A DNA stretch of 62,085 nt from Candidatus Limisoma gallistercoris (GTDB taxonomy: Bacteria; Bacteroidota; Bacteroidia; Bacteroidales; Muribaculaceae): positions 1 through 62,085 of the forward strand of contig DVHD01000113.1 in NCBI GenBank assembly GCA_018712365.1, given 5' to 3'. The translations under genes and the position numbers were made by a program. Of the stretch, positions 13,465-60,912 are shown in pieces; the first letter of the stretch is position 1; each line of letters begins with the position of its first letter. The notes under the pieces were generated by a model that did not search any database, was not told where the DNA came from, and saw only the letters and a program-made list of their open reading frames with translations.

Positions 13465-13580
13465 TCCGCCGCAAAAACATTCAGCAGATTGCCACAAAAA
13501 CACGCAACAAATTACCGCAGAAACACTCAACGGATTGCCACAAAAACATGCAACAGATTTTGCAAATCGGTGAAAAACAA
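13465..13580. repeat. About five degenerate tandem copies of a 23-nt unit (GATTGCCACAAAAACAYGCAACA)
   Basis: Read directly: ..ccgcaaaaacattcagca / gattgccacaaaaacacgcaaca / aattaccgcagaaacactcaacg / gattgccacaaaaacatgcaaca / gattttgcaaatcggtgaaaaaca. The array lies in the divergent korA / lplA intergenic region. Confidence 0.7.
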
Positions 13581-20769: not shown

Positions 20770-20948
20770 GCGGCTGAAGTCGCCGGTTAAGGGTTATTGG
20801 TTATGGAGTGCGACCGCTATGCGGCCGGAGTGCTGGGTGATGTTGTTCCCCAAGCTGCGCTCCGCTCGCATGGGGTCTTCTGAAGTGTTGCAGCTACGCT
20901 GCAAGTTAAGGTATGGGCTATGAGTTATGTGGTGCGGCCGCTGTGCGG
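20770..20948. repeat. Composite intergenic repeat (short hairpin + GGTTAT run + Y module + hairpin)
   Basis: Contains GGGTTATTGGTTATGG, GTGCGACCGCTATGCGGCC, the hairpin CCCCAAGCTGCGCTCCGCTCGCATGGGG (20848-20875) and TTGCAGCTACGCTGCAA (20888-20904). All of these recur elsewhere in the window. Confidence 0.7.
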
Positions 20949-28253: not shown

Positions 28254-29192
28254 ATGATTCCTGCTGTTAAAGAGATACCAAGAATATCAGTAAATAAGCT
28301 AATATCAATATTCCAGAAGGAGAAAAGCGACGCTTTCATACCGGGCTGCATGATAATATCGCGGACTGCTGACCGCGGCGCAGAATCGGAAAAGATACAC
28401 CAGTTGTCGCATCCGTTCAGCCTTGACGCATTCGTGTTCATGCTTTGCGAGTCGGGCGAGTTTGTAGTCACGACCAATTCCAACGACATACATCTGAAGC
28501 GTCACGATTTGTTCATCAATTTTCCGGGTCAGGTGATACATGTGGATGTCCCGGAAAGTTGCAAGGAGCCGGTGACGGTGCATATAGCGGTGATGGATCT
28601 CGCGTTTATCCATGAGATGAACCTTGACATAAAGCCGGTGGCACAGAAGTTGCTGGAGCTGAGGTCGTCGCAGATGATGGAGCTTACGGAAAAGGGCTTT
28701 TCGGAGCTTAATAACCTGATAAAGTCGATAACTGAAGAAATAAACAACAATGAGCCGGACAATGCCACGAACGACATTCTCCGCAGCCTGATAACGGCAA
28801 TATTTTTCAAGATAGGGCGTGTGGTTGACCAGAAGGCGACCGACAATCAGGGTGACAAGGAGGTGTTCGACAAAAACATACGCTATTTCAAGGAATTTAT
28901 GGTGCTTCTCGGGCAGCATTTCCGTAAGGAACGCTCGGTGGGGTTCTATGCTGACAAGATGCATCTCTCGGCGAAGTATTTCACTACTCTTATCAAGCGG
29001 GCGAGCGGGCAGACGGCTGCCGACTGGATTAATAATTATGTGATACTTGAGGCGAAGAATCTGCTGAAGTATTCTACGATGAACATACAGGAGATTTCGT
29101 ATAGCCTGAATTTCCCGAACCAGTCGTTTTTCGGGAAGTATTTCAAGCATCATACCGGGATGACTCCGAGCGAATACAAGAAAAGGAAGTAG
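28254..29192 (+). CDS. AraC/XylS-family transcriptional regulator
   Basis: C-terminal HTH_18 signature: SVGFYADKMHLSAKYFTTLIKRASGQTAADWINNYVILEAKNLLKYS..IQEISYSLNFPNQSFFGKYFKHHTGMTPSEYK. Confidence 0.85.
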   Translation: MIPAVKEIPRISVNKLISIFQKEKSDAFIPGCMIISRTADRGAESEKIHQLSHPFSLDAFVFMLCESGEFVVTTNSNDIHLKRHDLFINFPGQVIHVDVPESCKEPVTVHIAVMDLAFIHEMNLDIKPVAQKLLELRSSQMMELTEKGFSELNNLIKSITEEINNNEPDNATNDILRSLITAIFFKIGRVVDQKATDNQGDKEVFDKNIRYFKEFMVLLGQHFRKERSVGFYADKMHLSAKYFTTLIKRASGQTAADWINNYVILEAKNLLKYSTMNIQEISYSLNFPNQSFFGKYFKHHTGMTPSEYKKRK

Positions 29193-29196
29193 ATTA

Positions 29197-29424
29197 TTGC
29201 AGCTTTGCTGCAAGGTTATGGGTTATAGGTTAGGGGGTGCGACCGCTATGCTGCCGCACCCGTTGCACAGTCGTTTCAAGCACGACTTCTACGAGACCGA
29301 TGTCTTTGCCCTTTGCCTACCTACGGTCAAGGCCGTAGGTTACACGGCGACAGCCCCTCACGGGGCTGGCATCGTCGCTTCACTGATTAACCTCATAATC
29401 TTATGACCTTATAACCTCATAACC
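29197..29424. repeat. Composite repeat: hairpin + GGTTAT run + Y fragment + X core, closed by an inverted ATAACC run
   Basis: Left end is TTGCAGCTTTGCTGCAAGGTTATGGGTTATAGGTTAGGG. The centre matches the X core (GACTTCTACGAGACCGATGTCTTTG..CAGCCCCTCACGGGGCTGG). Right end is ATTAACCTCATAATCTTATGACCTTATAACCTCATAACC. Confidence 0.7.
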
Positions 29425-29434
29425 TTGTATGTGG

Positions 29435-30712
29435 TTATTTGAGGTCGAAGCCGATGTCGCGGCGGAAGTATTTGCCTTCGAAGTCGATTTTGGATATTGC
29501 GTCGAACGATTTTTCCAATGCTTCTTCTTTTGTATCTCCGTAGGAGCTTGCGGCTATGACTCGTCCGCCCGATGTGACGATTCCTTCCGGTGTGCGCTTT
29601 GTCCCGGCGTGGAAGAGTATCGAGCCGTCGACTTTTTCCAGTCCGGTTATTAGTTTTCCTTTTTCGTAGCTGCCGGGGTAGCCTTTCGACACCATCATTA
29701 CCGTGACGGCGTATCCCGGGGCGATTTCGAGCTTGCGCTCGGCCAGATTTCCGGAAGCCACGCCTTCGAGGAGGTCGACAAGGTCGCCGTCGGTACGGAG
29801 CATCACCACTTCTGTCTCCGGGTCGCCCATGCGCACGTTGTACTCTATGACCATCGGTTCGCCTTTGACGTTGATTAGCCCGAGGAAGATGAATCCCTTG
29901 TAGGTGAGGCGCTCTTCTTTCAATCCTTCGAGAGTCGGCAGGATTATTCGTTTGGTGACTTTTTGCATGAACTCGCCGTCGGCAAAGCTTACCGGCGACA
30001 CTGCTCCCATTCCGCCCGTGTTGAGTCCGGTGTCGCCTTCACCAATGCGCTTGTAGTCCTTGGCTACTGGCAGGATTTTGTAGGAATTGCCGTCGGTGAG
30101 GACGAATACGGAGCATTCTATTCCCGAGAGGAATTCCTCGATTACCACCGTGGCCGACGATTTGCCGAACATCCCGCCGAGCATTTCTTTCAGCTTTTCC
30201 TCGGCTTCTTCCAGCGTGGGAAGAATCAGCACTCCTTTCCCGGCCGCCAGACCGTCGGCTTTTAGCACGTAGGGGGCTTCGAGCGAGCGTAGGAACGCCA
30301 CTCCTTCAGCGTAGTTGCCGGCATCGACACTCATATAGCGTGCCGTTGGTATGCCGTGCCGCATCATGAATCCTTTGGCGAAGTCCTTGCTGCCTTCGAG
30401 CTGCGCGGCCGCTTTCGACGGGCCGATTACCGGCACCGCGTTCAGTTCTGGGTCGTTGGCAAAGAAGTCGTAGATTCCGGCCACGAGCGGGTCCTCGTTG
30501 CCTGCCACTACCATAGTCACGCCGTTGGCTTTGACGAAATCCTTGATTGCCGGAAAATCCATCGGCGACAGCGCTACGTTCTCGCCGTACTGGCTTGTCC
30601 CGCCGTTGCCGGGCGCTATGAAGAGTTTCTCCAACTTTTTGCTTTGTCTCATTTTCCAAGCGAGGGCCGATTCCCGGCCGCCCGAACCGAGCAGCAATAT
30701 TCTTTGACTCAT
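29435..30712 (-). CDS. purD: Phosphoribosylamine-glycine ligase
   Basis: [16 protein letters not shown], the ATP-grasp region, and a full-length 425-aa PurD-like sequence. Confidence 0.97.
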
Positions 30713-30740
30713 GATGGGTAAAATATTTTTTATGATATGA

Positions 30741-32339
30741 TTAATCTGTTATTTCTTCGTCTTCTTTTTTATGGCGGTGGCGCATAGTCACCTCCCCTTG
30801 CGGGATTTCCGACTCGTCGAAGAGCCGCGGCTTGCGGAACCGCACGGCGCGGTTGACCTTGGCATCGTCGAATACAGGCTCCGGCCGCCGGGCGGGTTTC
30901 TCGCTGCGCATCCGTTCGGAGTAGGGCTTGTGGTATTTTTCCTCCAGCGCGTTCTTTGGCTTTTCGCGGCGCACACCACGCCGGTCGCGCTCGTACCGGT
31001 CGTCTTTCGCTTTAAACCGGCGCGGGAACCTGTCGTCCTGATTTTTCCATTCAGGCTTGCGCTCGTAATCCCTTTCCCTGCGCGGACGGCGTTCGCCGAA
31101 TGACGATTTTTCGCGCGGGCGGCGTGCCTCTTTGTCGGCCAGTTTGCGTTTGGCGTCGTCCTCCGGCTTGCTTTTCAGCCGGTTGCCCTCCTTGACAAAG
31201 TCGTCGTATCGTCCGCCGAAAATTACATATTCACGGAACTCGCATTCGATAGCCCCGTTGAGGACAGGTATCTTTTGCGACGCTTTCAGTCCTATCTTGT
31301 CGAAATATTCGTTTTTTTCGCCGATGACCCAAGCGTGATAGCCTTTGAACACGTTTTTCAGCCGGTTGCCCAACGCTTCGTAGAGGGCTTCCAAGTTTTC
31401 GTCGTTCAGCCGCTCTCCGTAGGGCGGGTTTGTGATGAGCATACCGTTTTCGGGGGCTTCCTCATAGTCTTGGACGGGCATCACTTTGAGGTCGATGTAC
31501 CGTCCTACCCGCGCGCTTCTTATGTTCTTGGCGGAGATGGCTATTGCCTTGGCCGATATGTCGGAGCCGTAAATCTTGTATTCGAAGTCGCGCTCCTGCG
31601 AATCGTCGTTATAGATTTCGTCGAGTATCTCGGGCTCGTAGTCTTTCCATTTCTCGAAAGCAAACGACTGGCGGTAGATTCCCGGGTTGATGTTCGCGGC
31701 TATGAGGGCGGCCTCGATGAGGAAAGTCCCGGAGCCGCACATAGGGTCGATGAGGTTGCATTGTCCGTGCCATCCGGCTTTCATAATCAGTCCTGCGGCA
31801 AGCACCTCGTTGATAGGCGCGTCGGTCTGCGCCACGCGGTATCCGCGCTTGTAGAGCGGCTCTCCGGAGCTGTCGAGTGAGATTATGACGTCGTTTCCGG
31901 CGATATGTACGTTGAGCAGCAAGTCGGCGTTGACGAGCCTGATGGACGGCCGGCGGTTGTATTTCCCCGTGAAATAGTCGGCGATTGCGTCCTTGACACG
32001 GTATGTCACGAATTTGGAATGCCGGAAAGTGTCGCTATAGACAGTGGAGTCGATGGAAAAGGTCTGGTCGGGGGTAATCAGTTTGTCCCATTCGAATTGC
32101 TTTGCCGCTTCGTATAGCTGGTCGGTGTCGTCGGCCTTGAAAGTGAGGAATGGTTTCAGTATCCGGAGAGCGGTACGGCAGCAGAAATTCGCCTTGTACA
32201 TTATTGTCTTGTCGCCTCTGAACGCCACCATCCTGCGCCCGGGCTCCACATCTTCCGCTCCAATGTTAACCAATTCACCGGCAAGCACGTCCTCAAGTCC
32301 CTGAAACGTTTTTGCCACTAAATCCATCTTTTCTTTCAT
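30741..32339 (-). CDS. THUMP-domain class I SAM-dependent RNA methyltransferase (RlmL/UPF0020-like) with a ~150-aa R/K/E-rich C-terminal tail
   Basis: THUMP-like N-terminus, SAM motif [14 protein letters not shown], catalytic NPPYGERL, then a low-complexity basic tail ([26 protein letters not shown]...). Confidence 0.85.
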
Positions 32340-33268
32340 GCCTTGTCTTCTTGCTTAAATCTTAAAATATTATTGGCTTTAGCCTGAACTAACTTCTCGT
32401 TTTCCGCCACATCCTCCGTGACCCAGATGTTACCGCCGATTACCGCGTTGTTGCCGATTGTTATGCGCCCGAGAACCGAAGTGTTGGAATAGATTACCAC
32501 GTTGTCGCCGATAATCGGGTGGCGCGGTATCCCTTTGACGGGGTTGTTGTTCTCGTCGTAGGTGAAGCTTTTCGCGCCGAGCGTCACACCTTGGTAGAGC
32601 TTAACGTTGTTGCCGATGATTGCGGTAGCTCCGATAACCACTCCAGTGCCGTGGTCGATGGCGAAATATTCACCAATGGTAGCTCCCGGATGAATGTCGA
32701 TTCCCGTCTCCGAGTGGGCCATCTCGCTTATCATGCGCGGGATGACCGGCACGCCGAGGGTGAGCAGCGCGTGGGCTATGCGGTAATTGCTTATCGCCTT
32801 TATTGCCGGATAGCAGTAGATTACTTCCTCACGGCTTTCCGCCGCCGGGTCGCCGCGGTAGACGGCGCATACGTCGGTATGCAGCACTCTCCTGATTTCC
32901 GGAAGCCGGGAGATGAAGTCCATGGCGATGTCGTCGGCATTTTTAGCGATTGCGTTGTGGTCGATTCCCTTGCAGTTGCATTCCTTCAAGGCCAATCCTG
33001 CCGCAATCTGGTTGCACAGGAGCGAGTAGAGCCTTTCGCAGCGCAGCCCGGTGATGTATTCGAGGTTGTAGGAATTGACATCGTCGTTGCCGAAGAATCC
33101 CGGGAAGAGTATTTCGCGGCACAGCCCGATGATTTCCTTGATGGCCGGTTGCGACGGCAACGGCTCACCGTTCCAGCGCATGTGGCACAGGTCGTAGAAC
33201 GACCGGCTGCCTGACAGTTCTGCCACTGTCGCTTTCAGCTTGTCTTCGTGTCGGTAGGTCTTGTTCAT
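32336..33268 (-). CDS. cysE: Serine O-acetyltransferase
   Basis: Left-handed beta-helix hexapeptide region GIDIHPGATIGEYFAIDHGTGVVIGATAIIGNNVKLYQGVTLGA. Start moved to MNKTYR (33268) because the ORF's first ATG lies inside the promoter box. Confidence 0.85.
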   Translation of the reverse strand: MNKTYRHEDKLKATVAELSGSRSFYDLCHMRWNGEPLPSQPAIKEIIGLCREILFPGFFGNDDVNSYNLEYITGLRCERLYSLLCNQIAAGLALKECNCKGIDHNAIAKNADDIAMDFISRLPEIRRVLHTDVCAVYRGDPAAESREEVIYCYPAIKAISNYRIAHALLTLGVPVIPRMISEMAHSETGIDIHPGATIGEYFAIDHGTGVVIGATAIIGNNVKLYQGVTLGAKSFTYDENNNPVKGIPRHPIIGDNVVIYSNTSVLGRITIGNNAVIGGNIWVTEDVAENEKLVQAKANNILRFKQEDKA

Positions 33269-33289
33269 CGGAATGCTGCTTTGATGCTG

Positions 33290-33297
33290 CAAAGGTA
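33290..33297 (-). promoter_or_regulatory. -7 box TACCTTTG for cysE
   Basis: Reverse complement of caaaggta matches TAnnTTTG, 22 nt upstream of the ATG at 33268. Confidence 0.5.
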
Positions 33298-33338
33298 CGA
33301 CTATATGAGGGTATTTAAAAGAGCTTAGGCAGTTTTTT

Positions 33339-33568
33339 TGCGGCTGTCGCCGCAGGTTATTGCAGCTGAAGCTGCGGGTTATTGCGGCTGTCGCCGCAGG
33401 TTATGGGTTATGGGTTATGGGGTGCGACCGCTATGCGGCCGTCGGGTGGTGGGGTGGTGTGACCCCAAGCTGCGCTCCGCTTACTTGGGGTTCTCTGGAG
33501 TGCCGCCGCTTTGCGGCTTTATTGCGGCTGAAGCCGCAGGTTATAGGTTATGAGGTTATGGGTTAGGG
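33339..33568. repeat. Array of hairpin-GGTTAT units (three tandem 22-nt units + Y module + one further unit)
   Basis: TGCGGCTGTCGCCGCAGGTTAT / TGCAGCTGAAGCTGCGGGTTAT / TGCGGCTGTCGCCGCAGGTTATGGGTTATGGGTTATGGGG. Then GTGCGACCGCTATGCGGCC, the hairpin 33463-33490, and TGCGGCTGAAGCCGCAGGTTATAGGTTATGAGGTTATGGGTTAGGG. Confidence 0.8.
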
Positions 33569-35986
33569 GGTGCGGCTTGCGCCGCGGGCCAGGGTGAGGC
33601 AGGCGGATTTGCCGAATATGGTGCCGGGCTTGACGGTGCCTTTGATTTCCAGTCTTATGGTGCGCGAATAGGGCGCTATGACGCGGTGGACGAGCGGCGC
33701 GCCTACGGTGCCTGCGGCTTTGAGCGTCGAGATGAGGCTGCCGCAGCAGGAGCGTCCGTTTTCGCTGTATGCCGAAAGGCTGATTTCCATATTGTCGCCC
33801 ACGACGTTCCATAGCACTCCGCCCAGCCTCCGTCCGCCCCCGGTTTCTATCGCCCTTGTGCGCAGCACTACGGCGATGTTGTCGCCGGATTCGTTTTCCA
33901 ATGAGCGGAATGAGCTGCCGGCCAACAGGGCGGTGTCCTGCAGCCTTACGAGCTTTCCGTTTCCCGGATTGCGGCGGTAGAAGGTGCCTCCGCTTTCGAC
34001 CGTGATGATTTCGCCTCCGCATTCTGCCCAGATTTCGTCGTAGCGGCAGGAATATCCTAACGTGCAATCGCCGCCGGCGCAAAAGATTCCTGTCGGTTTT
34101 ACTTTTGTTGTCCTTAGCCTGCAAATTTCGCCGGTGGAGTCGGCGAACGCTATTCCGTCGGCTATGGGGACTACGGCTTCCTGCCTTAGGGCGGAGCGTC
34201 GTGAGAGCAGGTTGGCACCGGTACACTTGCCTTTCGTGTCGAACGAGAGCAGGTAGATGCCTTCGGCGGCGAAAAGGCAGAGCGAGTGCCTTCCCAATTG
34301 CCAAGAAGAGCCGAGTCCGAGAGACGGCGCGAGCGCGACGATGCCCCTGTTGCCCGCCTTTTCGCAGCGCTCCCAAACCAGCGGGTTGCCGGGCGCGGCG
34401 GCAAGCAAATCGCAGGGACGGTAGTCCTCGAATTGTTCGCCGGGATAGCCGGATTCTCCGGTTGAAGGCTGCAATTCCAACCCTTCGGGGCAGACGGCAT
34501 AAGCCATGTCGCCACCGGCGTTTCTCTGCATAGGGACTGTTACGGAATATTTTTTGCCACCGGCGACAATTGCCATGCTGGCCTGCACGGCGCGGCTGTC
34601 GGGGTAGGTAACCAGTCCGTTGAGCCGCAGCGACCATACGTCGGACAGGGTGGTGCGCGATATGGTGCGGATGCCGGATTGGGTGGCGATTTTTACGGCT
34701 ACGGTGACGCTTGCGGGACTTTTGACGATGCTTCCGGGCGAGAGCATTGCCTGATAGCGCGGCGGTTCCGGCGGTTTTACGCTGATTTGTCCTGCAAAGC
34801 AGCGGTCGGCTACCGTAGCCGTCACTTTGGCAGAGAAAGGAGGCATCGTAGGGGTGTAGGCCGCCTCCTGTTTACCGGGGTTGAAGTCGATGGCATAAGT
34901 GTCGGCCGACATGTCGCCGCCGGAGCCGTCGGAGGCGGGCGTGACGCCTTGCGCGGCGACTGTCCCTCCGATTAACTCCTCGATGCCTGAGATTGTAGCG
35001 ATGAGGCGGAAACCCCTTGTCTCCGCCAGTTGGCGGCATGCCGCTTCCTGATTTTGCCCTGCCGTACTTATTCTGAGAAAATACTGCGGCTCGCCTTGCT
35101 GTGACTGTTCGCAGCGGAATGTTGCCTGCCCGGCGGTATCGTCCTGCCAGACGGCGGCATAAATCTCGACGGCTTTCACCAAGTTGCGCCAAGCGCCTAT
35201 CCCCGGAGAGAGGAGAGTGAGCGACAGTTTCCAAGCGTTCTGGCGCATGACGGTTCTTTCCACTCTGAATTCCCCGGAGTTCTCCATCGTTACATCGGCG
35301 ACTGTTTCCGGATGTGAGACTGTGCCTACGACGGTGGCATCGGGCGACCAAATCATCGTGCCGTCCCAAAGCCTCAAAGCCGTGCGTATGGCGGCCGGGC
35401 TTGTCAGCATGAAGCCCTGCCGGGCTTGCAGTTGAAGGTTTTCCATCGCTTTCACGGCTTGTTTCTTCATCGCGGCGAGGTCGGCCGATTGCAGCGAGCC
35501 GCTCCATCCGGAGTAAGTGCCGCTGAGCCGCCGTCCGGCGATTTCTGCCGACAATTCCACTTTTTCCGCAGTGCCGAACGCCATCACCGGGAATTGCGGC
35601 GCACCTCCGAGAAAAGAATATGTTCCGTCGGAATAGTGCAGGTAGGACAAGCCTTCGGTTGTGGAGATTACGACGAAGTCGCCGGTCGAGGCGAAGGCTG
35701 TGACCGGGCTGCCGAGGGTGGCTATGGTTTCGCCGGTGGCGGTGAATGTCCCGTCGGCGGCGTAGCCAAGGAGAATGAGCGCGCCGTCGCGCTCCGAGAA
35801 ATAGTAGGTTCTTCCTTGCCGCCGGTCGTAGCCTACGAGGCGGTCGCCGCCGGGCAGCACGGCAATGGGCAGGGGGTTGCCTACGGCGGCTACGGAGTCT
35901 TTGCCGTAGGCGCGGAGGTTGACGGCTTCGGCTTCCGCGGCGTCGCCTTGCCGCAGTGTCTGTAATGGTATTTGTATTTCTTTCAT
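33563..35986 (-). CDS. Hypothetical 807-aa protein of unknown function, no signal peptide
   Basis: The longest ORF in the region with a balanced amino-acid composition; competing frames are extremely Arg-rich. Start set at MKEIQIPLQ (35986), 13 nt downstream of a TAAATTTG box. No family motif recognised. Confidence 0.7.
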   Translation of the reverse strand: MKEIQIPLQTLRQGDAAEAEAVNLRAYGKDSVAAVGNPLPIAVLPGGDRLVGYDRRQGRTYYFSERDGALILLGYAADGTFTATGETIATLGSPVTAFASTGDFVVISTTEGLSYLHYSDGTYSFLGGAPQFPVMAFGTAEKVELSAEIAGRRLSGTYSGWSGSLQSADLAAMKKQAVKAMENLQLQARQGFMLTSPAAIRTALRLWDGTMIWSPDATVVGTVSHPETVADVTMENSGEFRVERTVMRQNAWKLSLTLLSPGIGAWRNLVKAVEIYAAVWQDDTAGQATFRCEQSQQGEPQYFLRISTAGQNQEAACRQLAETRGFRLIATISGIEELIGGTVAAQGVTPASDGSGGDMSADTYAIDFNPGKQEAAYTPTMPPFSAKVTATVADRCFAGQISVKPPEPPRYQAMLSPGSIVKSPASVTVAVKIATQSGIRTISRTTLSDVWSLRLNGLVTYPDSRAVQASMAIVAGGKKYSVTVPMQRNAGGDMAYAVCPEGLELQPSTGESGYPGEQFEDYRPCDLLAAAPGNPLVWERCEKAGNRGIVALAPSLGLGSSWQLGRHSLCLFAAEGIYLLSFDTKGKCTGANLLSRRSALRQEAVVPIADGIAFADSTGEICRLRTTKVKPTGIFCAGGDCTLGYSCRYDEIWAECGGEIITVESGGTFYRRNPGNGKLVRLQDTALLAGSSFRSLENESGDNIAVVLRTRAIETGGGRRLGGVLWNVVGDNMEISLSAYSENGRSCCGSLISTLKAAGTVGAPLVHRVIAPYSRTIRLEIKGTVKPGTIFGKSACLTLARGASRTP

Positions 35987-35998
35987 GGCTTTTTTCCG

Positions 35999-36006
35999 CA
36001 AATTTA
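35999..36006 (-). promoter_or_regulatory. -7 box TAAATTTG for the 807-aa gene
   Basis: Reverse complement of caaattta matches TAnnTTTG. It implies a very short leader. Confidence 0.4.
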
Positions 36007-36044
36007 GCCGGGCAGAGTGGCGGGGCAGGGAGGAAAAGAGGCAT

Positions 36045-36105
36045 TGCAGCTTTGCTGCAGGTTACAGGTTATGAGGTTATGAGGTTATTGGGTTATGAGG
36101 TTATC
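36045..36105. repeat. Hairpin-GGTTAT unit with an extended GGTTAT run
   Basis: TGCAGCTTTGCTGCAGGTTACAGGTTATGAGGTTATGAGGTTATTGGGTTATGAGGTTATC. Confidence 0.75.
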
Positions 36106-36263
36106 TGTAAGAGCCGCAAGCAGAGGGAGACACTTGTGTTAGAGTCTGCGCCTTTTTCTTTTTTAGCGACAAACATAGTGTCTTTTGATAAGACAAAATA
36201 CATATAGGTATGGGAAATGAAAACATTATATCCGATATGTTACCGAATTAGATAGAATTTTCC

Positions 36264-36271
36264 TATCTTTG
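36264..36271 (+). promoter_or_regulatory. -7 box TATCTTTG about 300 nt upstream of the OMP gene
   Basis: Exact TAnnTTTG match. It would give an unusually long leader or a separate small transcript. Confidence 0.4.
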
Positions 36272-36355
36272 TAGCGTTGAACGTAATTTATATTGCCTAT
36301 GGTAGCATAACAGACATAAAAGACATAAGATAAAAAAGCGTTAGCTTGTATTTCG

Positions 36356-36471
36356 GTTATCCAAAATCGCCAAATTTTGAAAATGCAACCTGAAGTAGAA
36401 GTTAATGCCTGCGCATATACGCGCGGGCTATACTTGTTTGGTTGCAGCGTGTTTGGCGATACGTGGATAAC
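36356..36471 (+). other. 116-nt imperfect long hairpin made of three stacked stems; candidate structured RNA or leader element
   Basis: GTTATCCA..TCGCCAAA (36356-36374) pairs with TTTGGCGA..TGGATAAC (36452-36471). TGCAACC (36384-90) pairs with GGTTGCA (36440-46). CCTGCGC (36408-14) pairs with GCGCGGG (36421-27). Confidence 0.35.
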
Positions 36472-44884: not shown

Positions 44885-45236
44885 AGCTTTAATTGTCTCC
44901 CTCTGTTTGCGAAGCCTGCGGAGCAAATAGGGGGAGTGGCACGGAGTGCCGAGGGGGTTTTAGCCTGCGGCTCAGGTTATGGGTTATTGGTTAGCCTGTG
45001 ACCCTTAATCTATAACCTGCCACGACTCTGGCACAGAACCCCTCCGTCCAGTTGGGACACCTCCCCTATTAACTGCGCTCCGCTCCGTGAACAGGGGAGG
45101 ACACTTTGTAGAGCGGCTTTTGTCGGATGACGCGGCTTTTGTCGGATGACGCGGCTTTTGTCGGATGACCCATAACCCTTGACCTATGACCTGTGGCGAA
45201 GCCACAATGACCTGTAGCGGCAGCTACAATAATCTG
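44885..45236. repeat. Z-family composite repeat, copy A
   Basis: About 220 nt (44893-45112) align with 46030-46250 with roughly a dozen differences by manual alignment. The copy ends in hairpins TGTGGCGAAGCCACA and TGTAGCGGCAGCTACA. Confidence 0.8.
45113..45169. repeat. Three perfect tandem copies of a 19-nt unit GCGGCTTTTGTCGGATGAC
   Basis: Read directly. Present only in Z copy A. Confidence 0.95.
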
Positions 45237-45950
45237 TCACTTGCCGCTGTAGAATTCGTTGCGCATATTGTCGTATTCCTCTTGGCTGAGGAATTTCAGC
45301 TCTGCAAATTTGCTGAAATCGTTGTTGTAGATGTCGAAAGTGATTATCCCGCCTTTTTCGCTGCACAATTCCCCGGCTTTCACGGTCTGCCCCGGCTGGT
45401 AGTCTGCTTCAAGTTTGCCGCTGTCGTTAGTGCGGAACGGATTCAGATGTCCGAAAATGATAGGTGTGTCGTCAGAAGTCAGTGCCACATAGTGCAGGGG
45501 AGCGTCAGTGAGGGCTTCTTCTCCGGCGGCGCACTCACTCTTGTTTTGTCTTACCACAAAGTCCTTTTTAGCCTCTACCTTGACACGTATGTTGTAATAT
45601 CCGGCATTGAAGAGCTTTACATATTCATCCACTTTCGCTTCTTTCACCTTGAATGCCTCATACGGGTCGCCTGAGAAATCCACATCGTTGCCAACGGCTT
45701 TCGGGCCTTCTTCGGCGGCGCGCTCGAAGCATTCTTTTTCGTAATCCTTGAACTCTTGCATTTTGCTTCTGATGCCGTCGTAGTCGCGTGAGTTGCGGGT
45801 CTCTTCCACGAGTTTTTTCCTGTCGGCGTTGAGCTTCGACAGAATGACAGGAGCTTCACCCAATGTGCTGTTGCTGCCTGAGCCGCAACCCGATACTACT
45901 ACCGACACTGCAAATGCCAATGCCGTGATTTTCAATAAGTTTCTTTTCAT
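45237..45950 (-). CDS. Lipoprotein of unknown function
   Basis: Lipobox VVSGC after MKRNLLKITALAFAVSV. No recognised domain. Confidence 0.75.
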   Translation of the reverse strand: MKRNLLKITALAFAVSVVVSGCGSGSNSTLGEAPVILSKLNADRKKLVEETRNSRDYDGIRSKMQEFKDYEKECFERAAEEGPKAVGNDVDFSGDPYEAFKVKEAKVDEYVKLFNAGYYNIRVKVEAKKDFVVRQNKSECAAGEEALTDAPLHYVALTSDDTPIIFGHLNPFRTNDSGKLEADYQPGQTVKAGELCSEKGGIITFDIYNNDFSKFAELKFLSQEEYDNMRNEFYSGK

Positions 45951-46014: not shown

Positions 46015-46305
46015 GGCTGGCATCCTTGATTGTCTCCCTCTGTTTGCGGAGCCTGCCGGAGCAAATAGGGGGAGCGGCACGGAGTGCCGAGGGGGTTGGA
46101 GCCTTCGGCTCTGGTTATAGGTTATTGGTTAGCCTGTGACCCTTAATCTATAACCTGCCACGACACTGGCACAGAACCCCTCCGTCCCGTTGGGACACCT
46201 CCCCTATTAACTGCGCTCCGCTCCGTGAACAGGGGAGGACACTTTGTAGCTCTGCTTTTTTGTGGCTGTCGCCGCGGGTTATTTCCGCTGTGGCGCAGCC
46301 ACACG
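46015..46305. repeat. Z-family composite repeat, copy B
   Basis: Near-identical to copy A over the core. Ends in TGTGGCTGTCGCCGCGGGTTAT and GTGGCGCAGCCAC hairpins that abut the stop codon of the giant gene. Confidence 0.8.
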
Positions 46306-49300
46306 CTATAGCGCGAATTTCACTGCCTTGGCTTCGCCTCCGGCTATGGCTTTCACCACATATACGCCGCCCGGGTAGCCCGCGCAGTCGATTTCGGCCT
46401 GCGGGTCGGAGGTGCGGACTATTTCCATCACCTGTCCCTGCATCGACACTATGTAGAGCGTGGCCTCGTCGCCGTCGTTCCAGCCCGACAGTCTCAGGTT
46501 GCCGCGGTTGTTGGCCACGCGCAACTGCCATTCTCCGTCGTTGTAGTCGCGCAACTCGGTTACGCCTCCTGCTCCCTCCTCGCAAACGATAGTAGCCTCT
46601 GCCGTCAGTCCGGAGCCGTCGAGAGCCGTGGCGCGTACCACCACGTTGCCCGAACCCTCGCCTGTGGCTGTCAGCAAGCCGTTGGCGTCGATGGTAGCCA
46701 ATCCGTCGCCTTCAACAATTTCCCACGCCACGCGGTTGAACGTTGCCGACAGCGGTTGCATCTCCGTGAACAGGTGCAATGCGCCTTGCCCGTAGGTCAG
46801 TCTCATTTCCGGCTCTACGGAAAGTATCTGCATGCTTGTAGCGTAGGTAGCGGCTATGGCCTCGCTTGTCGATACCACATTGGAGCTTACCGCCACGCCT
46901 GTCCTGCCCGCAGCTTTGGCGCGCTGCATATCGGCGGCAGTCGGGGTGAACGTAACGGCGTAGAACATTTCGCCCTGCGGCGCGTTCATATCCGTATAGT
47001 TCTGCTGGCTTCCCGCTATCTGTGTCAGCTCCGTCAGATTGTCGGCCGACGGCCCGCGCATGATGGTGTAGTAGTCCACCTCCATACCCTCGTAGCTGTT
47101 CCACATCAGGTTGTAGCCTCCTGCGGCAGCCAAGTTAATCATCACGTGGAGCGGCTTGTGCGGGTCGCTCGCGTAGCTCTTCTGTCCGTTATCGGCCGCA
47201 AGGTTGATTATGTAGCGTTCCGACTTCACTGCCGGGTCGGATTCCGGGTCGGTGAACGCTCCTTCCGACAGGTCGGCTTCTCCGATTACCGAGTATTTGT
47301 CCACGCGGTTGGTTTCCTTGCTTATCACAACCTTGCCCACCTGCTGCGGCATTCCTGTGGTGTTCCAGCTTACGGTGTAGTGTCCGGCAGCGTCGGCTGT
47401 GACGCCCGCTATCTCCGCCAACGGCATCGCTTCAGCCACTACGGCCTCGCGGCGGCAGGTGTTGCCCTGAATATCGTCCTCGACATACGACTCTATAGTG
47501 TATGTCCCTGTTTCCGCAAAGGTGATTACCGCAATCTCATCGCCGCGCTTCCACTCTATCGTCACGCGCTCGTCGTCGCAGCGGAATCCGCATTCGCGTG
47601 AGTTGTTGAGCATCGCTTCCGGCACTTCCACCTCAATGGGCGCGCCGGCAAGCGGATTCTCCGGCAATGTGAAGTCAACGTCCAGCAAATCCACAACGGT
47701 TATCGCCGAATTGATTGTGATTCCGCCGACGGTGAGGGTGATGTCCTTCACACCCGGCTCGTCCCACTTCGCCGTTATCTCGCCGTTGCCCTTGTCGGCA
47801 ACAACCGTTCCGCCGTCAAGCTCATAGCTGAACGATGAGGCTTGCGTTCCAACGTATTTCAGCGTTGTTTCCGCTCCCTTGGCCACCTTGTCGGCAGCGT
47901 CGACGTATCCGGCCGCGCTGATTGTGATTTCCACCGGCTCGGTCATCGGCGAATGCTCGTTGAAGGCGTCGATAGCCTGTATCTGCACCTCGTAGGTCTG
48001 TCCGGCCTCCAAGAATTCCGAAGGCACGGTCATCCGTGTGGATTTCTTGTACATATAGCTCGGCACTACGGCAGCCTCGTCGGAAAGGGCGTTCATCGGC
48101 GAGATTACGAAGCTGTTCTCCCCGGTCGCGCCTTTCTTCTTCACGCTCACGTTGTACTGCATCTGCACAGCCGGGGTGTGGTCGTCCTTAGCGTCGCTCC
48201 ACGTTATCAGCATGCCGTCGGCTGTCTGCTTAGCCATCACGCCCGACGGACGCTCCGGGGCTTGGTTGCCGCTCTTGCCCAAAGTCTTGTTGTAACCGCC
48301 GATTTGCGGATATGCGCCGTCGCTAAGGGCGATGAATGGCGATGCGTCGTTGCTAACGCCGTTGGTACGGCAAAGCTCCGCCTTGAAATCCGGCTGCATC
48401 AGCAAGATTGCGTATGAGGGCATAGCGTCGGTGCCTGCCGGGTCTTCCGCCTTTATCGGGATGTCGGGATAACCGTTGTTGTCGAAGTCGTAAAGCCTGA
48501 AATAGTCGTCTTTACTGCTAAGCAGAGAGAAATTATAGTCGCCGACAAGCGGTATCCGCACCTCTTCCTTGCACGGCCATTCGCTTTCCGGCTTTCCGGG
48601 AATCACGCGGATAAAGTTCTCGCCCGATTTGCGGTAGAACAAATCCAAATAGCCGTCGCTGTTGAGGTCGCCGAACAGTGCCGGGAAATTATACGAATCA
48701 AAACTTACCTCGAACATCGGCTTCTCGTCCTCGAACGAAAAATCACCTGTCGGGTCTTTCAGCAAAGCGTACATCGTCCATATGTCGTTGTCACTGTCGC
48801 GTTTCGACGCTATCGCGTCGATAAAGCCGTCGCGGTTTATGTCGTGATAATATTCAGCGTCCAGCCGAACTGTCTTTTCCGGATTTTCCTTGTCGGGAAT
48901 CTCGAAAGATTCCACTTGCGTGAACGTGATGTTGTCGCCTCCGTTCAGATAGCTTGGGTTGGCCGTGTGACTTGTGTCATAGAACCATTCCGGATAGCCG
49001 TCGTTGTTCATGTCGCCGAGCAGCAATCCTCGCGGTATATTTCTGTCTGCGTTTATCATCATAAGCTCTTTTGTGCTGTTCTCGAAGCTGAAATCGTCGA
49101 AGCCGCTGTTGATAAACACGTTGCCTTTCTCCTCGTCGGACATGAAATCCAAATAGCCGTCCTTGTTGAAGTCGAGGATGCCGTATGGAGTCGTGCTCAA
49201 ATCCGTATTGAACAATTTGCCGACTTTTGTGAATGTCCCGTCGCCATCGTTCGACCACATCCCTTTATGTGCTGATGCAGCAAATGAAGAAACAATGGCA

Positions 49301-52159: not shown

Positions 52160-52575
52160 CCGTGCCTGTGGCTTGGTTGCTTCAAGCGCGACCTCTACGA
52201 GGCCGGTGCTTTGCCGCTCTATGACCCACGGCTGAAGCCGTGGGTTACGCATCAACAGCCTCTACGAGGCTGTACTGCACTGCTGTCTGCTCTCCTGCGC
52301 CGTCGCCCGCCTCCTATGAGGCCTGCATCCTTGATTGTCTCCCTCTGTTTGCGGAGCAAATAGGGGGAGTGGCACGGAGTGCCGAGGGGGTTGATACCTG
52401 CGGCCTCTGCCGCTATAACCTATAACCCTTAACCTCTAACCTGCAGCGCAAGCTGCAATAACCTGTAACCTGTGGCGGAGCCACAATAAAGAACCCCTCC
52501 GGGTCTTCGACCCACTTCCCCTATTAACTCCGCTCCGCTTCGTGAACAGGGGAGGACACTTTTCTGCTGCTTCAA
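52160..52575. repeat. Composite repeat: X fragment + Z copy C + hairpin/ATAACC units
   Basis: Contains GCGACCTCTACGAGGCC..CCCACGGCTGAAGCCGTGGGTTACGC (X). It also has TTGTCTCCCTCTGTTTGCGGAGCAAATAGGGGGAGTGGCACGGAGTGCCGAGGGGGTT and CTTCCCCTATTAACTCCGCTCCGCTTCGTGAACAGGGGAGG (Z), plus TGCAGCGCAAGCTGCA and TGTGGCGGAGCCACA hairpins. Confidence 0.75.
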
Positions 52576-60753: not shown

Positions 60754-60912
60754 GGGGATAAGAGAGCCTCGTGGAGGTCGCGCTTGAAGCAATTATGCTA
60801 TGGGTGCGACCTCCACGAGGCCGATTCCTTTGTCCGCTACCTACCCACGGCCAAGGCCGCGGGTTACTCGGCAACAGCCCCCACGGGGCTGGCTTCATCG
60901 TCGGCTGCGCAC
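60754..60912. repeat. X-family intergenic repeat, compact copy
   Basis: A 15-bp perfect inverted repeat CCTCGTGGAGGTCGC (60767-81) / GCGACCTCCACGAGG (60806-20). Then the hairpins CCCACGGCC-AA-GGCCGCGGG and AGCCCC-CAC-GGGGCT. Confidence 0.7.

Follow-up and report, generated by a model that had tools for sequence, protein, structure and literature searches.

What are the short hairpins that recur between the genes of a 62,085-nt contig of Candidatus Limisoma gallistercoris (Bacteroidales, Muribaculaceae), each followed by the word GGTTAT, and how did they come to lie there? The contig (GenBank DVHD01000113.1 of assembly GCA_018712365.1, positions 1–62,085), which we refer to as the window, carries at 33339 an array in which three such hairpins stand in tandem, and an earlier note on this DNA had likened them to the repetitive extragenic palindromic (REP) sequences and bacterial interspersed mosaic elements (BIMEs) of enterobacteria. 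REP/BIME-like is the best available description of the family and is largely supported by the results that follow. On the evidence as a whole, we consider it probable that this is a lineage-restricted family of extragenic palindromes, mobilised by Y1 HUH enzymes encoded elsewhere in the genome and persisting at gene 3′ ends.

The window is contig C32 of the genome G000 (other G numbers denote comparison genomes), a metagenome-assembled draft of 2.41 Mb in 158 contigs with 48% GC and 84% completeness, in which a simple codon-usage method called 1883 genes (89% coding). Genes of the window have identical proteins in many metagenome assemblies, which shows the stretch to be genuine and contiguous and its species to be widespread. 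Many contigs of the draft start or stop within repeats (C5, C135, C145, C120 and C72), which means that the assembly is fragmented by its repeats and that all copy numbers given here are lower bounds.

Each unit consists of a 15–17-nt GC-rich hairpin with a GGTTAY word directly on its 3′ side. Among units the closing pair TG...CA, the GGTTA and the first loop base are kept, and the stem sequence is free but complementary; at least 90% of units have T as the first base of the loop, which would be expected if a protein recognised them. The conserved end of the unit is GGTTA(T/C), on the 3′ side, and GTAG and CGTC are both absent. Head-to-tail units repeat every 22 nt and run into GGTTAY words spaced 7–8 nt, and within one array the GGTTA core is constant with 2–3-nt spacers that differ. 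We count ca. 55–65 units genome-wide, the perfectly paired ones in ca. 35 clusters on 19 contigs, and a covariance model of the unit returns 65 matches, a modest copy number and a lower bound in a genome that is 84% complete with contigs ending in repeats. Contig C8 (35 kb) alone carries 20 units. In the window the model finds 12 matches at E ≤ 1, and GGTTATRRGTTAT occurs seven times against 0.01 expected. TATCTTTGCA-type 10-mers are frequent in G000, and Neisseria-type uptake sequences, counted in the same genome, are absent, both of which indicate a member of the Bacteroidota.

All 13 positions that the earlier note had listed carry the unit (20888, 29197 and 33519 become 20889, 29198 and 33523 when counted from the hairpin start), its total of at least 14 being slightly generous, with 11 clean units and two degenerate ones at 20889 and 46261. 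The three 22-nt units in tandem were recovered by Tandem Repeats Finder (33338–33404, period 22, 3.0 copies). The four stem variants that it had described are present and paired in the window, and at least 11 variants exist genome-wide.

The pairing of the stems was examined in several ways. First, an anchor that specified only the flanks of the unit (T[GA]-N4-loop-N4-[CT]A, then (A)GGT[TC]A) detected 377 sites genome-wide with a bimodal distribution of pairing; in 53 of these all four inner positions were complementary, and these 53 perfect units comprised 39 distinct hairpins, the pairing being kept throughout the stem variants. Second, in an alignment of units with 4-nt loops and some non-hairpin rows, 80.9% of cells were paired compared to 65.1% in shuffles, and the covariation score was 0.354 against 0.113, with none of 500 shuffles and no slid register comparable. 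As the alignment rows were partly hand-picked, a test without selection for pairing is cleaner, and for this we took the 24 nt preceding the first word of each of 73 word arrays. A perfect 6-bp hairpin directly preceded 35 of the 73 arrays (0.05 in shuffles), compared to 1.3% of GGTTA sites that stand alone. Genome-wide, 71 perfect hairpins run directly into GGTTA, and 4–24 into each of 12 control pentamers, and the 71 cases split into the TG-type units and a CACGGC type which flanks Y1 genes. The covariation seen by the earlier note in the window thus persists and widens when all genomic copies are scored. It is also visible at an orthologous site, the 3′ end of the NeuB gene, where TGAGCC..GGCTCA in one strain corresponds to AGAGCC..GGCTCT in another, a compensated change of one pair. 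Identical 16-mers, loops included, are found again on unlinked contigs which, taken together with the 39 distinct hairpins among 53, indicates that units are copied and that they also diversify with their pairing constrained. The minus-strand RNA of 33325–33575 folds with z = −5.6 and with every hairpin formed. Of the Rfam 15 models, only a tRNA reaches its gathering score in the window, and in 28900–36400 there is no relevant match at E ≤ 1.

The sites of the window on which the remaining analysis draws are as follows (X1 and X2 are further palindromic modules that accompany the units).

20785–20903, plus strand: word array, X1, X2, then a degenerate unit, TGCAGC-TAC-GCTGCA, at 20889, trailed by degenerate words (AGTTAAGG).
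29198–29232, plus strand: unit TGCAGC-TTT-GCTGCA, 5 nt past the stop of an AraC-like gene, with three words, then X1.
29322–29342, plus strand: Y-type hairpin TACGGTCAAGGCCGTA with GGTTAC, of the same design as the hairpins flanking Y1 genes.
29388–29432, minus strand: array of GGTTA-type words in the sense of purD, beginning 8 nt past the purD stop.
33339–33398, plus strand: three tandem 22-nt units, TGCGGC-TGTC-GCCGCA, TGCAGC-TGAA-GCTGCG and TGCGGC-TGTC-GCCGCA, each with GGTTAT.
33399–33421, plus strand: array of the GGTTATG heptamer word, 3.3 copies (Tandem Repeats Finder).
33422–33441, plus strand: module X1, palindrome GTGCGA-CCGC-TAT-GCGG-CCG (GTGCGACCGCTATGCGGCCG).
33461–33492, plus strand: module X2, hairpin CCCCAAG...CTTGGGG with loop core CTGCGCTCCGCT.
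33502–33522, plus strand: hairpin GCCGC-TTT-GCGGC followed by TTTATT, terminator-like in the GGTTA sense, which closes a composite block of ca. 140 nt.
33523–33565, plus strand: unit TGCGGC-TGAA-GCCGCA with four GGTTA words, the last of which holds the stop of the 807-aa gene (minus strand).
33566–33590, plus strand: X1-like remnant GGGGTGCGGCTTGCGCCGCGGG, which encodes the final codons of the 807-aa gene.
36045–36103, plus strand: unit TGCAGC-TTT-GCTGCA with six words, upstream of the 807-aa gene start.
45165–45228, minus strand: units TGTAGC-TGCC-GCTACA and TGTGGC-TTC-GCCACA, 8 nt past the stop of a 237-aa gene, followed by GGTCA/GGTTA words.
46261–46303 (part), plus strand: imperfect unit TGTGGC-TGTC-GCCGCG with GGTTAT.
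46261–46303 (part), minus strand: hairpin TGTGGC-GCA-GCCACA, with the stop codon of a 1931-aa gene 2 nt away.
52413–52485, minus strand: units TGTGGC-TCC-GCCACA and TGCAGC-TTGC-GCTGCA, then four words.

At 33563–33600 the 807-aa gene takes its final codons and its stop from repeat-derived bases, the X1-like remnant and a GGTTA word, and these bases vary by strain (ggccagggtga vs. GGTCAgggtga).

The position of the units relative to genes is biased. Coding sequence makes up 89% of the genome, yet 52 of the 53 perfect units fall between genes, as do 73 of the 74 word arrays. Of the arrays, 50 are downstream of a co-oriented gene and 21 downstream of an opposed one (p = 8 × 10−4), with 32 of the 50 co-oriented arrays within 60 nt of the gene end, compared to one of the 21 opposed. 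Within 100 nt after stops, sense arrays outnumber antisense arrays by 27 to 6 (p = 3 × 10−4), and 13 hairpins begin 0–8 nt after a co-oriented stop, none being as near to an opposite-strand gene. Convergent intergenic regions are over-represented, with arrays facing each other. By local GC skew there was no bias for a replication strand (23 vs. 23), and the orientation is therefore tied to genes rather than to replication, within the limits that a fragmented assembly sets. The contacts between repeats and stop codons that the earlier note had pointed out were found at each of the four gene ends concerned: 33563–33565 (TTA inside GGGTTAGGG), 29435–29437 (TTA within GGTTAT), 45237–45239 (TCA, hairpin 8 nt away) and 46306–46308 (CTA, hairpin 2 nt away). 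In sense, a consensus scan detected no terminator-like hairpin with a T-run at 33563 and 29435; the ends at 45237 and 46306 were read by eye only. Several genes ending beside arrays on C22, C98, C109 and C150 terminate with a C-terminal sorting domain of type IX secretion, with tails of the ...GIYIVRV...KV type, and one such neighbour has a PF18962 Por_Secre_tail match.

This placement is what would be expected if the repeats were a non-mobile, lineage-specific signal of transcript 3′ ends, in which hairpin and GGUUAY act together to stabilise the transcript, to mark a processing site or to terminate transcription with the help of a factor, selected separately at each gene end. Such selection would account for stems that are free in sequence but stay paired and for the conserved word downstream of them. 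The sense bias (50 vs. 21, and 27 vs. 6 close to stops), the 13 hairpins hard against co-oriented stops with none so near an opposite-strand gene, the facing arrays in convergent regions and an orientation that follows genes and not GC skew all speak for such a signal, and stems that are diverse but always paired are reminiscent of terminators as a population. Under strict criteria a hairpin with GGTTA follows 18 genes and a hairpin with a T-run 46, and in other genera the words stand after stops without any hairpin. One feature of an intrinsic terminator is present, namely a GC-rich hairpin soon after the stop in the sense of the gene; the U-tract, however, is absent, GGTTAY following the stem directly. 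Further, 21 arrays run antisense to the gene upstream of them; the array at 33339 is among these and is an exception in being antisense to both of its neighbours, and several arrays lie past a canonical hairpin with T-run and so beyond the end of the transcript. Half of the species of the genus lack arrays, so this cannot be a core signal; identical 16-nt hairpins at unlinked loci point to copying, and a variation of 1–4 copies between strains with identical neighbouring proteins is unlike a constrained signal. We therefore regard a purely non-mobile signal as a possible but unlikely explanation, yet a putative RNA signal at gene ends would be the more interesting possibility of the two. If the hairpin-plus-word module acts on transcripts, it would offer a testable model of how gene ends may be marked by non-canonical signals in a major lineage of the gut. 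A G-quadruplex or telomere-like reading of the words was also considered; their G tracts are mostly GG, so that two tetrads could form at best.

The units are part of larger mosaics, which differ between strains. The order of hairpin units, words, X1, X2 and terminator-like hairpin seen at 33339 recurs at 12 or more sites, and a word array leads straight into X1 at 12 of ca. 20 copies of X1 with the CCGCTATGCGG core. X1 is itself built like the units, with fixed flanks, GTGCGA...CCG, around a 4-bp stem that covaries (CCGC/GCGG, CCTC/GAGG or CGGC/GCCG). In ten assemblies with an identical 310-aa neighbouring protein, the spacer at 33268–33563 ranges from 242 to 589 nt and contains, depending on the strain, 1–4 tandem composite blocks of ca. 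140 nt, each with 1–3 units, 2–4 words and differing stems at equivalent positions. At the position of the tandem (33339–33398) strains hold one or three units, hence array lengths do differ between strains, a comparison which the earlier note had proposed. At 29198–29435 the number of words varies between strains, and an 18-nt stretch that holds the Y-type hairpin of 29322–29342 is precisely present or absent beside TTAC (ccTACGGTCAAGGCCGTAGG|TTAC vs. cc|TTAC), with no target-site duplication at this polymorphism. A perfect 19-nt tandem repeat at 45113–45169 (GCGGCTTTTGTCGGATGAC), with three copies in the window, has one to three copies among strains. The 36045 array is invariant among the strains seen, except for one base change in the first word in one assembly.

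Variation of this kind raises the question of whether any enzyme or function is needed, as slippage, unequal recombination and gene conversion could maintain a local micro- or minisatellite, with hairpin-templated repair keeping the stems. All strain differences seen within one locus are gains or losses of whole repeat units, and homogeneous arrays such as (GGTTAGA)15 and (GGTTAAT)n exist in related genomes, both as such a process would predict; quasi-palindrome correction is, moreover, an established way of keeping stems perfect. Slippage, however, cannot place one design at ca. 35 unlinked intergenic sites or by stops, and the GGTTA core remains fixed as the 2–3-nt spacers vary inside one array. 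The design of hairpin plus GGTTAC also brackets Y1 genes, and we consider it improbable that local repeat dynamics account for the family by themselves.

The candidate mobilising enzymes lie, as the earlier note had supposed, outside the window, which contains no Y1 gene. Three Y1_Tnp genes are present elsewhere in G000, on C120, C61 and C10, each paralogue in single copy. Their products are ca. 150 aa in length with a mutual identity of 60–66%, and possess the HUH motif (DHIHI) and the motif S-Y-I-S-N-Q-Q-E-H-H (Y---Q--HH). They score 74–79 bits on the IS200 model NF033573 (cut-off 55), and their nearest solved structures are IS200/IS605-family transposases. By motif, not by tree, they fit TnpA-Y1 subclass 1.2. 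The C61 and C10 genes are bracketed by an inverted composite of ca. 95 nt, which includes CCCACGGCC-AA-GGCCGTGGG followed by TTAC, that is, a hairpin with GGTTAC, and the C120 gene is bracketed by inverted copies of X1. An orthologue of the C61-type gene in G015 has the same flanks, a Y1 gene in G018 is flanked by CCCCAAGC...GCTCGGGG and then TTAC, and TAACC at the foot of a hairpin is also found beside Y1 genes of other genera. The flanking modules recur 15–45 times elsewhere in G000 and are among its most frequent 12-mers. The flanks are thus inverted copies of related dispersed modules (hairpin with GGTTAC, X1 and CAGCCCCCACGGGGCTG), and since both the flanks and the units at 33339 are hairpins with GGTTAY, the GGTTAY-tagged hairpin is their common denominator. 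Where the earlier note proposed a search for genes flanked by inverted units, the flanks of all three genes are related inverted modules and not the TG...CA units themselves.

The C61 cassette shows signs of movement. Over 705 nt it is 92% identical between G000 and G015, where adjacent genes share 74%, and in G015 it is inverted and has changed sides relative to the neighbouring block; together these imply that the cassette has moved. In G018 it is not syntenic. The composite of ca. 95 nt, a second repeat system, comprises three hairpins (CGACCTCYACGAGGCCG, CCCACGGCC..GGCCGTGGGTTAC and CAGCCCCCACGGGGCTG), its 12-mers being the commonest in the genome, and is also dispersed in gene-free form, resembling REPINs (REP doublets forming hairpins) or miniature transposable elements with inverted repeats (MITEs), at 29237–29370, 52186–52290 and 60804–60900 of the window. 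Beside the Y1 gene on C120 (G000:C120:5320–5940) lies a divergent gene, LepA-like by eye, whose product starts MKNIRNFCIIAHIDH and whose stop codon overlaps the first bases of X1 (TAGTGCGAC).

From the inverted hairpin-plus-GGTTAC modules that bracket the C61 and C10 genes and the related gene of a sister species, we infer that hairpin and GGTTAY would form the recognition and cleavage signal of the IS200/IS605-type Y1 HUH enzymes of this genome, and mobilisation of the units by these enzymes is a reasoned proposal. The enzymes would seed copies of the unit on single-stranded DNA, after which slippage or unequal recombination would alter the copy number, and copies may persist at gene 3′ ends either because they are tolerated there or because they provide useful hairpins at RNA 3′ ends, as for enterobacterial REPs. 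A combined scheme can also be drawn, in which the hairpin with its GGUUAY words would be a terminator or stabiliser without a U-tract in Muribaculaceae-type Bacteroidales, read by some further factor, and spread and renewed by subclass 1.2 Y1 enzymes that take the same hairpin and GGTTAY as their substrate on DNA. We hold this to be rather unlikely in its full form, although if a 3′-end module were indeed renewed by Y1 enzymes, the signals at gene ends would be the work of a domesticated single-strand transposase.

Several results weigh against mobilisation by Y1 enzymes. A class 2 REP-associated tyrosine transposase (RAYT) gene was not found in G000, its Y1 proteins reaching 23–30 bits on NF047646 (cut-off 80), and none of the three Y1 genes is flanked by the TG...CA units themselves. 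At five loci compared across strains there was no empty site for a whole array of units and words. Lagging-strand-specific Y1 transposition predicts a strand bias, yet the strands are balanced (23 vs. 23), and a purely functional, non-mobile signal would equally fit the very high diversity of stems and the preference for the sense orientation at gene ends. Covariance-model matches number 65 in G000, 18 in G015 and 12 in G018, compared to 0–2 in each of the 17 remaining species of the genus, and exactly the same three genomes have the C61-type Y1 gene (units in 3 of 3 vs. 0 of 17). G015 and G018 are, however, the closest relatives of G000 (GyrB identity of 96% and 98%, all others 88% or less), and as the co-occurrence is confounded by kinship, it says nothing alone. 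Two genomes of the genus, G002 and G012 (99% complete), have arrays and no Y1 match, and four others have Y1 genes without arrays; the association between the two is weak among the 20 genomes of the genus (Fisher p = 0.17), and neither there nor among 121 genomes of the family is it strict. GGTTA-word arrays are spread much more widely than the units, and patchily: half of the genus (10 of 20 species) has them, as have 33 of the family's 121 genomes, some with more than 100 matches, and in other genera plain heptamer arrays (GGTTAAT, GGTTAGT) stand right after stops without hairpins. The words may therefore have dynamics or a function of their own. In one genome of another genus (L021; G148:C21:3000–3900) an AT-rich open reading frame of ca. 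120 codons lies between inverted (GGTTAAT)6 and (TAACCAT)9, in the manner of a cassette.

The comparison with described systems favours the REP/BIME-like family, with reservations. Like the REPs and BIMEs of Escherichia coli and their transposase RayT (TnpA-REP, YafM), the units are short extragenic palindromes with a short conserved tag at one end, combine with other motifs into mosaics, are frequent at gene 3′ ends and in convergent regions, and share the genome with a Y1 HUH gene that sits between inverted palindromes. They differ from E. coli REPs in their tag, GGTTAY on the 3′ side instead of GTAG, in the accompanying word arrays and in stems that are far more diverse (39 sequences in 53 copies). 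E. coli has several hundred REP copies, compared to at least 65 here. Successive units form direct tandems and do not alternate as in BIMEs, being inverted only as facing arrays between convergent genes; compared to REPINs they are single or in direct tandem, and the facing pairs have their tags inward across a spacer, the opposite of the Y1 flanks. The Y1 proteins, in contrast to RAYTs, fall under the cut-off of the RAYT model. The analogy of the earlier note accordingly stands for the extragenic palindromes and their mosaic arrangement, and fails for the tag (neither GTAG nor CGTC), the head-to-tail units and the class of the enzyme.

GTAG- and CGTC-tagged repeats are likewise families of short stem-loops with a tag at one end, often accompanied by RAYT genes, and CGTC-tagged palindromic repeats are reported from Bacteroidetes (Di Nocera et al. 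2013, PMC3733652). Neither tag is present here; GGTTAY, which reads TAACC on the opposite strand, would add a third. The Y1 proteins share DH[IV]H, Y---Q--HH, a length of ca. 150 aa, low copy number and occurrence in Bacteroidetes with TnpA-Y1 subclass 1.2, which is described as low-copy, from Bacteroidetes and Cyanobacteria, generally without IS200-type terminal hairpins, and is listed without REP association (Quentin et al. 2018, PMC6006769). Here, by contrast, every Y1 gene is bracketed by inverted hairpin modules, the subclass being assigned by motif only. The ends of IS200/IS605 elements (IS608, ISDra2) also place a subterminal hairpin beside a short cleavage or target word, and GGTTAC and GGTTAT contain TTAC and TTAT; TTAC is the cleavage or target word of IS608. 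Unlike these elements, the units are gene-free, 22 nt long, in tandem arrays and without replication-strand bias.

A further candidate within the Bacteroidales is BrickBuilt of Porphyromonas gingivalis, an intergenic, strain-variable, spacer-less minisatellite which has a 23-nt repeat, leader and tail segments and IS5-type GAGACCTTTGCA-like terminal inverted repeats, and which has many genes with a type IX secretion C-terminal domain as neighbours (PMC4596501). By analogy, the family could be a MITE of the BrickBuilt/PgRS type moved by a DDE transposase, with the 22-nt units as its internal minisatellite, a view that gains from the intergenic position and internal spacer-less 23-nt minisatellite of BrickBuilt in another member of the order (PMC4596501) and from the type IX C-terminal-domain genes that neighbour both BrickBuilt and several arrays here. 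Neither IS5-type terminal inverted repeats nor target-site duplications were seen at block ends, however, and the 18-nt hairpin is present or absent without duplication. The 22-nt repeat is itself palindromic, which is not described for the 23-nt repeat, and BrickBuilt matched only P. gingivalis and P. gulae; we regard movement as a MITE as very improbable. Identity with BrickBuilt itself was rejected on its 23-nt repeat, its IS5-type terminal repeats and its restriction to these two species.

A literature search combining Muribaculaceae with extragenic palindromes found nothing, and REP-type repeats and Y1 enzymes, although well studied in Proteobacteria, have barely been so in gut Bacteroidales. 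The family would add a third end-tag, GGTTAY, to GTAG and CGTC, and would link dispersed hairpin repeats to Y1 subclass 1.2, whose describers reported no such structures. To these it adds a clear sense bias at gene ends and strain-variable intergenic blocks, which could serve as strain markers in metagenomes; the repeats also break short-read assemblies. A separate minisatellite is present in the window at 13468–13559, with a 23-nt period and four copies (GCCACAAAAACACGCAACAGATT).

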